DNA of 4,248 nt from a virus (taxonomy: Duplodnaviria > Heunggongvirae > Uroviricota > Caudoviricetes), in IMG/VR virus record IMGVR_UViG_2671180417_000009; one strand, written 5' to 3'. The position numbers and the translations under genes were made by a program. Below, one piece after another: positions 337-4,217 of this stretch. Each line of letters begins with the position of its first letter. Within the stretch, counting starts at the first letter, position 1. The notes below the pieces were generated by a model, which did not search any database, was not told the DNA's origin, and saw nothing but the letters and a program-made list of their open reading frames with translations.

Positions 337-492
337 TCACTCACCTGAGTTTCTTTCCAGCCAGCGACGGGCACCATTTTCGGTTTTAAACGTTTTGCTT
401 CTGGTATACGTCATCGCGGTAAACGTGCCGTCCTGGTTGGGAAACACGCCGCATACCAGAGATTCGTTGTTGCCAAGATCGATAGTATCCAT
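337..492 (-). CDS. ydfA: YdfA-like small prophage protein (51 aa, DUF1391-type)
   Basis: Internal start of track ORF 337..546: minus-strand ATG at 492-490 with GAGGT 4 nt upstream; translation MDTIDLGNNESLVCGVFPNQDGTFTAMTYTRSKTFKTENGARRWLERNSGE. The 18 codons upstream in the track ORF have no RBS and look non-coding. Assignment to YdfA is from memory. Confidence 0.7.
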   Translation of the reverse strand: MDTIDLGNNESLVCGVFPNQDGTFTAMTYTRSKTFKTENGARRWLERNSGE

Positions 493-696: not shown

Positions 697-1104
697 TTAT
701 TTATTTGCGCTTCTTTTGCGAGCTTTGAGTAGTTCTTCAAAAAGTTTGTTGAAATTCTCAACTCGAGCACGCATCTCTGACAACAGAGCCTTTTGCTCTG
801 ACTCAGGCAGTGCGTCGAACAGTTGAAGCAACTCTTTTTGATCTTCTGTCAGATTAACTGGCTGATTATCTGGGATCGGTTCGCCTGGTTGCTTATCTTC
901 ATCTCCAAAAAGAAGCCAAGTCGGCGAGCACTGAAGCGCCTGGCTCAGTGCGAATAATCTCTTCCCCGCTGGCTGTGTTTCATCTCTTTCCCATTGAGAA
1001 ATTGTTACGTGAGCCACTTTAACCAGCTTACCTAATGCGGCCTGAGACAGTTTTAATTTTTTACGCCTGTATAAGAGGCGAGCACCGAAGGTTTCGTTTT
1101 TCAT
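697..1104 (-). CDS. dicA: DicA-like prophage repressor (XRE-family HTH, CI-like, 135 aa)
   Basis: Track ORF 697..1104 (-). N-terminal HTH segment LSQAALGKLVKVAHVTISQWERDETQPAGKRLFALSQALQCSPTWLLFGDEDKQP and C-terminal ...PESEQ...EMRARVENFNKLFEELLKARKR closely match my recollection of E. coli Qin DicA (also 135 aa). Divergent from a cro-like gene, as in lambdoid immunity regions. No SD before the ATG. Confidence 0.9.
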   Translation of the reverse strand: MKNETFGARLLYRRKKLKLSQAALGKLVKVAHVTISQWERDETQPAGKRLFALSQALQCSPTWLLFGDEDKQPGEPIPDNQPVNLTEDQKELLQLFDALPESEQKALLSEMRARVENFNKLFEELLKARKRSANK

Positions 1105-1180: not shown

Positions 1181-1408
1181 ATGTTGAAAATTGATGCTAT
1201 AGCGTTTTTTGGCAGCAAAACAAAGCTTGCCAATGCCGCAGGAGTTAGGCTGGCAAGCGTTGCTGCATGGGGGAAACTGGTTCCTGAAGGTCGCGCGATG
1301 CGTCTACAGGAGGCATCTGGCGGTGAGCTTCAGTATGATCCCAAAGTTTATGACGAATATCGTAAGACGAAGCGGGCGGGGCGGTTGAACAATGAAAATC
1401 ACCCCTGA
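1181..1408 (+). CDS. dicC: DicC/Cro-like small DNA-binding regulator (75 aa)
   Basis: Track ORF 1181..1408 (+) with strong SD AAGGAG and ATG start. Divergent from the repressor gene. Sequence MLKIDAIAFFGSKTKLANAAGVRLASV...EGRAMRLQEASGGELQYDPKVYDEYRKTKRAGRLNNENHP matches my recollection of Qin DicC (about 76 aa, YdaS/Cro-like family). Confidence 0.85.
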   Translation: MLKIDAIAFFGSKTKLANAAGVRLASVAAWGKLVPEGRAMRLQEASGGELQYDPKVYDEYRKTKRAGRLNNENHP

Positions 1409-1943
1409 ACAGGTTTGTGAGGCTCTGGATGCCTGGGTATGCCGACCAGGAATGACACAGGAGCAGGCGACGATATTAATCACGGAAGCATTCTGGGCTC
1501 TGAAAGAACGCCCGAACATCGATGTTCAACGCGTCACGTTTAATGATGGCGAGGTTGATCAACGGGCGCTGGGCGTTAACCGGGTGAAGATATTCGAACG
1601 CTGGAAAGCTATCGACACCAGGGATAAGCGGGAAAAACTCACGGCGCTGATTCCGGCAATTATGGAGGCTATCCGAATTAGTGATTTCAGGTTGTATCGT
1701 GAGATCAGTGATGGAAAAAGCATTACGTACATGATCGCCGGATTAAACAAAGAATATGGCGATGTGGTGGAGTCCGGGCTGCTTTTTGCGGATCCAGCTG
1801 TTGTGGAACGTGAGACTGACGAGCTTATAGAAAAAGCTATTGCTTTCAAGCATGCGTATCGTCAGCAATATCTATATTACTTTGCAGATAAACAAATGTC
1901 TGCCAGGGGTTCGTATGAGTATCGATGCACTACGATGGGCTAA
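1392..1943 (+). CDS. YdaT-family protein (CII-like regulator / reported toxin family), 183 aa
   Basis: Track ORF 1392..1943 (+); ATG overlaps the dicC-like gene by 17 nt, with a G-rich stretch upstream. N-terminus MKITPEQVCEALDAW and the segment DKREKLTALIPAIMEAI resemble Rac YdaT (MKI..., ...REKIQKLIPAIL...) as I recall it. Third gene of the rightward operon, the position a cII analogue would occupy. Longer than Rac YdaT (about 140 aa) through a C-terminal extension. Confidence 0.8.
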   Translation: MKITPEQVCEALDAWVCRPGMTQEQATILITEAFWALKERPNIDVQRVTFNDGEVDQRALGVNRVKIFERWKAIDTRDKREKLTALIPAIMEAIRISDFRLYREISDGKSITYMIAGLNKEYGDVVESGLLFADPAVVERETDELIEKAIAFKHAYRQQYLYYFADKQMSARGSYEYRCTTMG

Positions 1944-2955
1944 AAAGGTGAAAACCGGCAGTTCATCCAGTAAGTCAGTATTGACCTGGCTTGCTGATAT
2001 GTGCGGTGCCGATTTGTGTGCATACCCGTCTGTATCTGCCCTGGCAGAAGTAACGGAACTGAACAAAAAGACAGTGCAGGACAGCTTACGACACCTGATG
2101 GAGATTGGGTTAATTGTTGATACCGGTGAGAGAAAAGGCAGAACAAAGCAAATTGTGGTGTACCGACTTATCGGTGTAGAAGAAAGTGTTGCCGAGCCTG
2201 AATACACCCAAAAACGGGAGTCTTTAAAGGTGGGTAAAATTGGTGCTGTTAATAAAAACAGTACCGAAAATGGTTATGTTTCAGCACAAAAGAGCCCCAA
2301 AAACGGAACTCTTAGCTGCATGGAAAATAACCAAAGACACCCAAATTTTCCATCAAAGACACCCAAAAACGGATCACGGAACCCAAAGGAACCCAAAGAT
2401 CTAAACACCACACATAACGCACGCGAGAGTGCTCCGACCAGTGAGCAGAAAGTTTTGTCGTTACAGGCTGCACCTCCTGTATTCCTGGATGGCCTGAGCG
2501 AACCCATCGGAAAATTTCCGATGACCGATAGCTGGCATCCGTCGCGGGATTTTCGACGACGGGCTGCGTTGTGGGGGATGGCTTTGCCGGAGACAGAATT
2601 TACGCCTGCTGAACTTGCCGCATTCCGGGATTACTGGAGTGATGAGGGGAAGGTTTTTACGCAGGTTCAGTGGGAGCAGAAATTCGCCCGTCACGTAAAT
2701 CACGTCAGGGCGCAGGTTAAACCAGTCAGCAAGGGGGTAAACCATGCAGCAGCACCAGGTGGCACCGCATCACGGGCAGTTCAGGAAATTCGGGCAGCAC
2801 GTGAGCAGTGGGAACGTGAAAACGGATTTATCAGCGACGGAAACGGTCTGGAAGCTGTGGGAACTCATGGGGGAGGTTTATTCGAACCGCTGGACCCAGA
2901 AGAACGGGGCCGCACCTTCGAAGCTCTGGATTGCACAGATTGGCGCGATGACTGA
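1915..2955 (+). CDS. Replication initiator, lambda O-like: N-terminal winged-helix domain plus DnaT-like C-terminal domain (about 347 aa)
   Basis: Same frame as track ORF 1840..2955, but the preferred start is ATG 1915 (AGGGG SD at 1905-1909, 5-nt spacer), giving MSIDALRWAKKVKTGSSSSKSVLTWLADMCGADLCAYPSVSALAEVTELNKKTVQDSLRHLMEIGLIVDTGERKGRTKQIVVYRL, a wHTH-like N-terminus. C-terminal region DSWHPSRDFRRRAALWGMALPETEFTPAELAAFRDYWSDEGKVFTQVQWEQKFARHV resembles the DnaT C-terminal / YdaU (DUF1376) family. The start choice is an inference; the TTG at 1840 and ATG at 1852 lack an SD. Confidence 0.8.
   Translation: MSIDALRWAKKVKTGSSSSKSVLTWLADMCGADLCAYPSVSALAEVTELNKKTVQDSLRHLMEIGLIVDTGERKGRTKQIVVYRLIGVEESVAEPEYTQKRESLKVGKIGAVNKNSTENGYVSAQKSPKNGTLSCMENNQRHPNFPSKTPKNGSRNPKEPKDLNTTHNARESAPTSEQKVLSLQAAPPVFLDGLSEPIGKFPMTDSWHPSRDFRRRAALWGMALPETEFTPAELAAFRDYWSDEGKVFTQVQWEQKFARHVNHVRAQVKPVSKGVNHAAAPGGTASRAVQEIRAAREQWERENGFISDGNGLEAVGTHGGGLFEPLDPEERGRTFEALDCTDWRDD
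2204..2398 (+). repeat. Cluster of short direct repeats inside the O-like gene (candidate origin iterons)
   Basis: CCCAAA cores start at 2207, 2296, 2340, 2362, 2382 and 2392. AAAGACACCCAAA occurs twice (2333-2345, 2355-2367); CCCAAAAACGG three times (from 2207, 2296, 2362); GGAACCCAAAG in tandem (2378-2388, 2388-2398). Spacings 89, 44, 22, 20 and 10 bp are near multiples of a helical turn. AT-rich stretch at about 2225-2290. The repeats fall in the interdomain linker-coding part of the gene, as the lambda ori does in O. Confidence 0.4.
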
Positions 2956-3409
2956 GCAGCAAATCCGACAGGTCTGCCGCCAGTGCATGGACCGCTGCCG
3001 GGCGGGTGAAACATGGCCTCCGGACCTGGCTGAGTTTGTGGCACTGATTTCGGAAAGCGGAGCCAATCCATTCGGTCTGACGGTGGATGCTGTGATGGAG
3101 GAGTACCGCCGCTGGCGCAATGAGTCCTGGCGATATGACGGAAGTGATAAGTACCTGTGGTCTCAGCCTGTGCTGTATCACATTTGCCTCGAGATGCGTT
3201 CAAAGGGGATTGAGCGCCAGATGACCGAAGGGGAATTAAAACGGCTTGCAGAACGGCAGCTGGCGAAATGGGCAAAGCATGTTAGTAACGGCCTGAGCGT
3301 TCCGCCAGTCCGGCGACAACTGGCGGCACCCAAACGCCCGTCGGGGCCAACGCCAATTGAGTTGCTGAAACAGGAATATGAACGCCGGAAAGCGGCTGGG
3401 TTTGTTTGA
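2744..3409 (+). CDS. Replication protein P-like (lambda P family helicase loader), 221 aa if started at 2744
   Basis: Track ORF 2744..3409 (+). Its C-terminal two-thirds align by eye with lambda P: WPPDLAEFVALI ~ LPSPGQFVAWC, VDAVMEEYRRWRN ~ LVDMVYEYCRKRG, GELKRLAERQLAKWAKHVSNG ~ AELRRKAADELVHMTARINRG. ATG 2744 has a strong SD (AAGGGGG at 2731-2737, 6-nt spacer) and gives a lambda-P-like length (lambda P is 233 aa). Alternative starts: ATG 2867, and ATG 2948, which overlaps the O-like stop as ATGACTGA; the start is uncertain. No Walker A motif, so not a DnaC-type loader. Confidence 0.75.
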   Translation: MQQHQVAPHHGQFRKFGQHVSSGNVKTDLSATETVWKLWELMGEVYSNRWTQKNGAAPSKLWIAQIGAMTEQQIRQVCRQCMDRCRAGETWPPDLAEFVALISESGANPFGLTVDAVMEEYRRWRNESWRYDGSDKYLWSQPVLYHICLEMRSKGIERQMTEGELKRLAERQLAKWAKHVSNGLSVPPVRRQLAAPKRPSGPTPIELLKQEYERRKAAGFV

Positions 3410-3527
3410 GTTGAGAAGTAATTTTTACCGGGAGGAAATTTATGGAGACTGTTTTTGACGCACTGAAAGCGATGGGAAAAGCCACGTCGGTAGAGCTGGC
3501 TGCGCGCTTGATATCAGTCGTGAAGAA

Positions 3528-4202
3528 GTGCTGAACGAACTATGGGAACTGAAAAAGGCTGGTTTCGTTGATAAAAGCGCGTACACCTGGCGTGTGGCTG
3601 ATAACAACGTTCAGCAGGAACAGCCAGCGCAGGCAGAACTGCCGGAAGAAATCACCACAGCAACAGTAGCGAAAATCTCAGAGTGCGATTTAACCGCGAC
3701 GATTGAACAACGAGGACCACAAACGGCTGATGAGCTGGCTACGTTTTTCGGCATCACATCACGCAAAGTGGCTTCAACGCTGGCAATGGCAATCAGCAAA
3801 GGTCGTCTGATTCGCGTAAATCAGGGCGGTAAATTTCGTTACTGCATACCGGGCGATAATTTACCAGCAGAGTCGAAAGCAGCATCGGTAGCGGAAACTG
3901 ATGGTAAGGCCTTTCCTCAGACCGCAGGTGTTGCGTTACCAGTACAGGAGGCTGCAACACAGGAAGATATTAAAACAGAAACTGTGGCGGACATTGTGCA
4001 GTCGTTGCCATCGTTTACCGAAACGCAAGCAGATGAGCTGATTTTTCCGTCCCTGCGCAGGACAAACCTGGCGCTGCGCAGGGCGAAAAGTGATGTTCAG
4101 AAGTGGGAGCGAGTCTGCGCCGCGCTGCGGGAGCTGAACAAGCACCGGGATATTGTTCGACAGATTACTGATTCTTCCCGCCATGTTGCATCGGAAAAGT
4201 GA
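3528..4202 (+). CDS. Hypothetical prophage protein with winged-helix-like N-terminus; longest ORF of an apparently frameshifted gene
   Basis: Track ORF 3528..4202 (+), which begins at GTG with a poor SD. The frame is open back to 3459 with no start codon, and reads ...[32 protein letters not shown]. Upstream ORF 3442..3534 (ATG, GGAGG SD 6 nt upstream) in another frame encodes [30 protein letters not shown]. Joining the two at about 3508-3512 gives one continuous wHTH-like N-terminus, so this is likely the 3' part of a gene disrupted by a 1-nt indel. Function not recognised. Confidence 0.55.
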
Positions 4203-4217
4203 TTGCCGGAGGCGCTT

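Follow-up and report, generated by a model that had tools for sequence, protein, structure and literature searches.

A one-nucleotide deletion splits a ydaW-type gene in the replication region of a lambdoid Escherichia coli prophage

The locus and its two-piece gene

The window (the whole stretch of DNA that was analysed, 4,248 bp) corresponds in full to contig CYEO01000103.1 from the draft E. coli assembly GCA_001285285.1, and it is the immunity and replication region of a lambdoid prophage. The genes were assigned by Pfam, and a matching order of genes has been annotated in chromosomes of E. coli and in Rac-like phages (Table 1). The gene under study lies 3' of the prophage replication genes and 5' of a DUF977/LygF gene, which is the synteny of a ydaW-type gene. 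The DUF977/LygF gene has a GGAGG at 4208-4212 and starts with ATG 4218, leaving 10 codons inside the window. The operon to which the ydaW-type gene belongs is the early-right one (replication to nin), and the prophage is of the Rac-like lambdoid kind.

Both ends of the contig fall within prophage genes, the left one in a minus-strand partial ORF (1-177) and the right one in the DUF977/LygF codons; such ends are typical of an assembly break in prophage DNA that is repeated within the genome. Elsewhere in the window, an A6G7 homopolymer pair (AAAAAAGGGGGGG) occupies the intergenic positions 674-686, just 3' of the stop of the cI-like repressor. The YdaT-family ORF encodes 183 amino acids in the window versus 141 in two related records (L001 and L007), and the DnaT-like gene begins within its 3' end.

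Table 1 Features of the window, with the basis of each assignment.
Feature	Position	Strand	Basis
DUF1391 gene	337-492	-	Pfam
cI-like HTH_3 repressor	697-1104	-	Pfam
Cro/YdaS-like gene	1181-1408	+	Pfam
YdaT-family gene	1392-1943	+	Pfam
DnaT-like replication gene	1915-2955	+	Pfam
Lambda-P-like replication gene (upstream neighbour, synteny marker)	2948-3409	+	PF06992; order shared with L001 and L004
Shine-Dalgarno GGAGG of the DUF1627/YdaW gene	3431-3435	+	read from the sequence; kept in intact alleles
Split DUF1627/YdaW gene	3442-4202	+	alignment, Pfam
5' stub ORF, 30 aa	3442-3534	+	ORF; alignment to intact alleles; deposited as CTZ25256.1
Heptamer G GGA AAA, in the X XXY YYZ register of frame 0, encoding M-G-K	3474-3480	+	113 of 127 alleles, intact ones included
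1-nt deletion, A (third base of Arg codon 22, CGA)	3506-3507	+	gap column in the alignment; junction also in L005-L012
EcoRV site GATATC, encoding D24-I25	3510-3515	+	invariant in intact alleles
3' remainder, 224-aa ORF from GTG 3528	3528-4202	+	PF07789, 318 bits; deposited as CTZ25293.1
Private substitution C>T, P145S (nearly invariant residue)	3873	+	absent from 80 intact alleles
Private substitution G>A, A208T (family-invariant residue)	4062	+	absent from 80 intact alleles
DUF977/LygF start (downstream neighbour, cut by the contig end)	4218-4248	+	synteny with L001-L004 and L007

The DUF1627/YdaW gene is present as two ORFs in different frames. The first is headed by the GGAGG, 6 nt and ATG 3442, and ends with TGA 3532-3534 after 30 codons. 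The second frame is open from 3459, directly behind TGA 3456-3458; GTG 3528 is the first start codon in it, and from there it runs for 224 codons to 4202. Re-reading of the sequence agrees with the preliminary description on each of these coordinates, as well as on the position of the EcoRV site. The stop of the stub is overlapped by the GTG (GTGCTGA). The remainder contains a winged-helix unit (wHTH2, ~3672-3851), the Pfam DUF1627 domain (~3702-4166) and a long C-terminal helix (~4020-4196).

The two ORFs had been read beforehand as a single winged-helix gene broken by a 1-nt frameshift, and the gap column of the DNA alignment, the common METVF start of the homologues and the match to phrog_630 all support this reading. 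The joined frames are identical to residues 1-46 of intact homologues, far beyond what chance would give. The repaired protein aligns end to end with phrog_630 (residues 1-249 to 1-252 of 253, E = 6.5e-128), and PF07789 scores 317.6-318.1 bits both on the repaired protein and on the 224-aa ORF (cut-off 28.1). Annotated relatives are single ORFs of 762 nt and 253 aa with the same RBS and ATG as in the window, and the 849 bases around the frameshift match DUF1627 genes in 2,784 of the 5,426 complete E. coli genomes and also Rac-like phages, in which it goes by the name ydaW.

The preliminary description had advised looking for single-ORF homologues of about 250 aa, and these proved to be the rule. 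When 5.8 billion protein clusters were searched with the repaired protein, 2,517 matched, and the best 120 of their representatives are 243-296 aa long and cover 96-100% of it. METVF is the start of 119 of these 120, and the one exception begins 4 residues in. Residues 1-50 are the best-conserved block among the same 120 representatives (mean major-allele frequency 0.97). Two outcomes had been set beforehand as evidence for two separate genes, and neither was seen: among the best 120 of the 2,517 representatives none starts at the equivalent of 3528, and the 30-aa ORF, whose own cluster has 2 sequences only, occurs as a separate small gene in none of the 5,426 complete E. coli genomes. This supports a single disrupted gene, and by its sequence the gene of the window is classed as a disrupted member of the DUF1627/YdaW family (PF07789, phrog_630). 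The N-terminal wHTH and DUF1627, which are to be expected in one ORF of ~250 aa, lie in different frames in the window. Protein clustering at 90% also grouped the 224-aa ORF with unrelated 93-aa "DNA-binding proteins"; we treated these as a clustering artefact.

A rare, inherited deletion in codon 22

When the window is aligned at the DNA level with four intact alleles, a single gap column appears. The aligned stretch reads GCGCGACTTGATATC in the intact alleles and GCGCG-CTTGATATC in the window, that is, the ancestral GCG CGA CTT GAT ATC (A R L D I) has become GCG CGC TTG ATA TCA (A R L I S). Arg22 and Leu23 survive the frameshift by coincidence, and the stub therefore carries 23 authentic residues followed by ISVVKKC. 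The deletion site is not in a homopolymer. Loss of a G shared between TTG and GAT, the mechanism put forward in the preliminary description, is ruled out by the gap column, which lies at the third base of CGA: the base lost is the A. The frameshift had likewise been placed at the EcoRV site; the site is there, at the coordinates then given, whereas the lesion is at 3506/3507 and the site is incidental and unrelated to it.

The deletion recurs in other assemblies. At least 9 contigs, representing ~22 sample records, encode exactly this 30-aa product, and each time a DUF1627 ORF follows; the carriers come from NCBI, from Logan assemblies of five SRA/ENA runs and from two ENA metagenome assemblies (with MEGAHIT-style contig names). 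Most carriers are 100% identical to the window, over up to 3,966 nt; in five of the contigs the identity is 99.96-100% across 2.2-4.0 kb, and one (L012) differs from the window at 4 positions. The exact repaired 253-aa protein is absent from ~15 billion proteins, so the window-type allele is always seen with the deletion.

These records bear on the possibility that the gene is intact and that the A is missing through an error of sequencing or of assembly, the short contig coming from a collapsed repeat. The contig is only 4.2 kb long with both ends in repeated prophage DNA, up to 8 places per E. coli genome match the query, which makes a collapse of paralogues conceivable, and the deletion is found in no complete genome. 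An artefact is nonetheless highly improbable: the identical deletion-bearing sequence is present in those ~22 sample records from different projects and assemblers, the site offers no homopolymer, and a repaired allele with the two private substitutions of the window was never seen. For the window-type allele, the recurrence in independent datasets effectively excludes a sequencing or assembly error. The gene thus carries a disabling lesion relative to its intact orthologues, and this lesion is inherited and is not an artefact, as is expected of a pseudogene. The preliminary description had left three readings side by side; that of a real mutation (pseudogene or null allele) is favoured, that of a sequencing or assembly error is effectively excluded for the window-type allele, and that of expression dependent on a frameshift finds no support (see below).

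The lesion is rare. BLAST with both common 5' haplotypes found the deletion in 0 of the 5,426 complete E. coli genomes, the best matches being always one base longer than the deletion query. An exact-pattern scan for the deletion allele returned nothing from the GTDB species representatives, IMG/VR and the JGI metagenomes, and the control pattern with the A present returned at least 120 IMG/VR contigs.

The same deletion is found on other backgrounds. L007, a 15-kb Logan contig from run SRR33956737 with the gene at 6001-6770, carries it in a different mosaic: the contig is identical to the window over 3411-3538 only (128 nt), and it is ~14% divergent over the aligned flanks and ~20% within the rest of the gene. 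When the A is restored in L007, the gene is identical over 771 of 771 nt to an intact IMG/VR allele (L058, 8499-9269). The frameshift peptide is also encoded on a contig of 10,031 nt (P0017, 30 aa) with the I17 5' haplotype that is typical of K-12, L002 and L003, and its sequence suggests a third background for the lesion. Short-patch conversion within the 128-nt tract, independent recurrence or a paralogue chimera are possible sources of the L007 and P0017 forms; the identical tract allows short-patch gene conversion or, for the single Logan contig, a chimera of paralogues.

Occurrence on several backgrounds could reflect selection for the split form or a mutational hotspot. The latter would mean that the A is lost recurrently on different alleles, for instance by template switching at a quasi-palindrome, and in its favour the deletion is present on the window-type allele, on the L058-type allele (in L007) and on the I17 5' haplotype; moreover, the sequence CGCGCTT that arises from the deletion is complementary to AAGCGCG at 3575-3581. 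We consider a hotspot distinctly unlikely. An arm of 7 nt is unremarkable, since 11.5% of the 1-nt deletions possible in the gene give one as good or better, and L007 and L058 have a broken partner arm. Template switching at the quasi-palindrome was rejected on these two counts. Nor is there a repeat for slippage, the deletion is missing from all of the IMG/VR contigs and complete genomes counted above, and the tract common to the window and L007 permits conversion or a chimera.

The age of the lesion can be judged from the rest of the gene. Nei-Gojobori dN/dS is 0.23-0.26 between the repaired window gene and intact alleles, and 0.18-0.28 among the intact alleles. Compared with 80 distinct intact DNA alleles, the window has two private nucleotides only, both nonsynonymous and at conserved residues (P145S and A208T). 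The unchanged dN/dS and the small number of private substitutions make the lesion look recent. Two private changes at conserved sites hint at relaxed constraint, two sites being too few to test.

Protein architecture and translation of the remainder

An intact homologue with 94% identity (P0033) was modelled with AlphaFold2 (mean pLDDT 63, 74-84 in the folded blocks). The N-terminal unit of the model (wHTH1) spans residues 1-52, with helices 4-11, 16-23 and 27-40 and a wing, and is connected by a disordered linker to wHTH2 (78-137), which has helices 81-91, 96-103 and 107-119 and a beta-hairpin at 124-135 (strands 124-128 and 131-135). A disordered stretch (140-193) and one long helix (194-252) follow, the latter probably mediating oligomerisation. 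The model, whose overall confidence is moderate, thus has the three-helix bundle, the recognition helix and the beta-hairpin wing of a winged helix. The intact product of ~253 aa would accordingly be ordered as wHTH1, linker, second winged helix, disordered stretch and long C-terminal helix. The frameshift had been located inside a single wHTH domain; it does fall inside a wHTH domain, although this is the first of two in the model and not the only one.

The Foldseek top 50 consists mostly of wHTH proteins (MarR, ArsR, FeoC, AspA, Z-alpha and the tandem-winged-helix ScpB). Each of the two N-terminal units superposes on wHTH proteins (MarR, ArsR, FeoC, AspA and Z-alpha) with TM values of up to 0.83, referred to the target, and an rmsd of 1-2 Å over ~56-60 columns, whereas the tandem winged helices and the long helix of the YdaW family are not the MarR/ArsR arrangement. 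Pfam HTH matches to residues 4-46 are sub-threshold (HTH_20 with 26.6 bits against a cut-off of 27, TrmB and MarR_2), and these matches are gone from the 224-aa ORF. A search of the PDB by sequence gave no significant match. On the strength of the model, the winged helices of the YdaW family are putative DNA-binding domains.

The frameshift comes after residue 23, between helix 2 and the recognition helix of wHTH1. Residues 1-23 of the stub are the authentic N-terminus (helices 1 and 2), and residues 24-30 are out of frame. GTG 3528 corresponds to V30, which lies within the recognition helix, and a complete wHTH1 is therefore present in neither piece. One A was lost from codon 22 (CGA to CG-) in the lineage of the window. 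Translation from the strong RBS and ATG 3442 would then give the 23 authentic residues and the ISVVKKC tail, ending at the stop at 3532-3534. This stub lacks the recognition helix, and the remaining 224 codons lack a ribosome-binding site of their own. At most, a little N-terminally truncated protein devoid of wHTH1 might be made by termination-reinitiation at GTGCTGA. A stub without a recognition helix and a remainder without an RBS make this a probable loss-of-function allele, and we infer that translation of the downstream part is absent or low.

Ribosomal frameshifting by -1, programmed or at a low spontaneous level, would be another way to express the downstream frame: -1 is the direction needed, and the frames would be joined by such a shift at any point in 3459-3531. 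The preliminary description stated that no slippery heptamer is present; this is not strictly correct, as G GGA AAA lies in the X XXY YYZ register inside the permissive zone. Its doubt about programmed frameshifting is shared here on other grounds: intact alleles, to which a shift would do harm, have the heptamer as well, no stimulatory structure follows it, and the two-frame layout is not conserved, all listed homologues being single-frame. Its coding of M-G-K accounts for the conservation of the heptamer, and synonymous variation is seen at its Gly codon (GGGGAAA in 9 alleles). Folding of 3490-3590 gave z = -0.75, with 48 of 200 shuffles doing equally well. A shift at the heptamer would also replace residues 14-23 and so scramble helix 2. 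Frameshifting by -1 is barely credible as a means of rejoining the frames; as to its programmed form, we reject it, the heptamer being apparently incidental. Transcriptional slippage was rejected too, there being no homopolymer of at least 6 bases in the overlap, where the sole run is T5 at 3452. No Rfam RNA family was found in the window.

Termination-reinitiation at GTGCTGA is the sole plausible route to a downstream product, as GTG 3528 overlaps the stop of the stub. It is expected to be weak at best, since no usable Shine-Dalgarno sequence stands ahead of the GTG. The split gene might still be functional, if reinitiation yielded a YdaW without residues 1-29, composed of wHTH2 and the C-terminal helix and with altered or retained activity, and if the allele had been passed between prophages as tolerated or advantageous. 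The stop/start overlap is an arrangement able to support reinitiation, the DUF1627 Pfam domain is wholly kept, and the downstream frame is open in all carriers, including two backgrounds that are ~20% divergent; an open downstream frame is, however, expected anyway of a young lesion. Besides the missing Shine-Dalgarno sequence, several findings make a functional split gene unlikely: the allele is very rare, both private substitutions are at conserved residues, of which A208 is invariant, the near-uniform METVF start of the best 120 representatives leaves no counterpart for a protein starting at V30, and the N-terminal wHTH that is lost is the best-conserved part of the family.

Decay of ydaW-type genes and its meaning

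The DUF1627 family decays often, by many independent lesions, as judged from its sequences. Among the IMG/VR contigs that are intact at the site of the deletion, three (L029, L108 and L128) are interrupted by a stop codon following codon 49, and other frameshifts affect at least four (L043, L065, L079 and L106); of the alleles collected with the intact-site pattern, ~7% carry a disruption at some other position. One 296-aa member from ENA (P0038) has an internal duplication of the segment comprising the recognition helix and wing of wHTH1 and seems to have arisen by unequal recombination of two alleles.

Intact DUF1627 proteins of Rac-like and Stx-associated prophages (WP_024244914.1, WP_000450667.1 and ALP46883.1 of Rac-SA53) share 93-94% amino acid identity with the repaired protein, as well as the RBS, the start and the neighbours, with a P or DnaC-like gene upstream and DUF977/LygF downstream. 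They are single 253-aa ORFs with CGA as codon 22, whereas the window lacks the A and has P145S and A208T. YdaW of the K-12 Rac prophage (b1361, PF07789) resembles the window gene in its family, in its position after the replication genes and in being a damaged allele, and over residues 1-150 it hardly differs from the repaired protein of the window. The damage differs. K-12 YdaW (L047; L133, 5753-6313) has 186 aa with a foreign C-terminal tail, which we infer to stem from the internal deletion of Rac; it keeps both winged-helix units and has lost the C-terminal part. The window allele, unlike that of K-12, has lost the N-terminal winged helix by frameshift and keeps the rest as an ORF without a head. 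K-12 YdaW is listed among uncharacterised putative transcription factors of strain-dependent length (PMC9308461), and K-12 ydaW was recovered in a screen as a plasmid-borne blocker of the toxicity of retron-Sen2 RcaT (bioRxiv 10.1101/2020.06.22.160242). DUF1627 genes have also been described as conserved neighbours of prophage Pas sRNAs (bioRxiv 10.64898/2026.05.13.724894).

Very probably, then, the locus holds a real, inherited 1-nt deletion in a single ydaW-type gene, a young pseudogene that arose by ordinary prophage gene decay. There is only a small chance that the split form is alive, with reinitiation at GTG 3528 producing a YdaW without the first winged helix, and that the lesion is spreading or recurrent. 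Should this be true, the split form would have spread by short-patch recombination under selection, or the site would be a specific deletion hotspot, and the consequence might be, for example, a changed regulatory or anti-defence activity of the prophage.

The young pseudogene has a consequence for the sequence databases. The deposited CTZ25256.1 ("DNA-binding protein", 30 aa) and CTZ25293.1 ("transcription regulatory protein", 224 aa) both derive from a single frameshifted ydaW-type gene, of which each is a fragment, and they should be flagged as a pseudogene; the value of the finding lies mainly in annotation. A natural allele devoid of just the first winged helix could serve as a separation-of-function variant, which is a convenience and not a discovery. 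Nothing here departs from ordinary prophage gene decay; the split ydaW-type gene is a small, clean example of the decay of accessory genes in lambdoid prophages, and of how one lesion can occur on different mosaic backgrounds.
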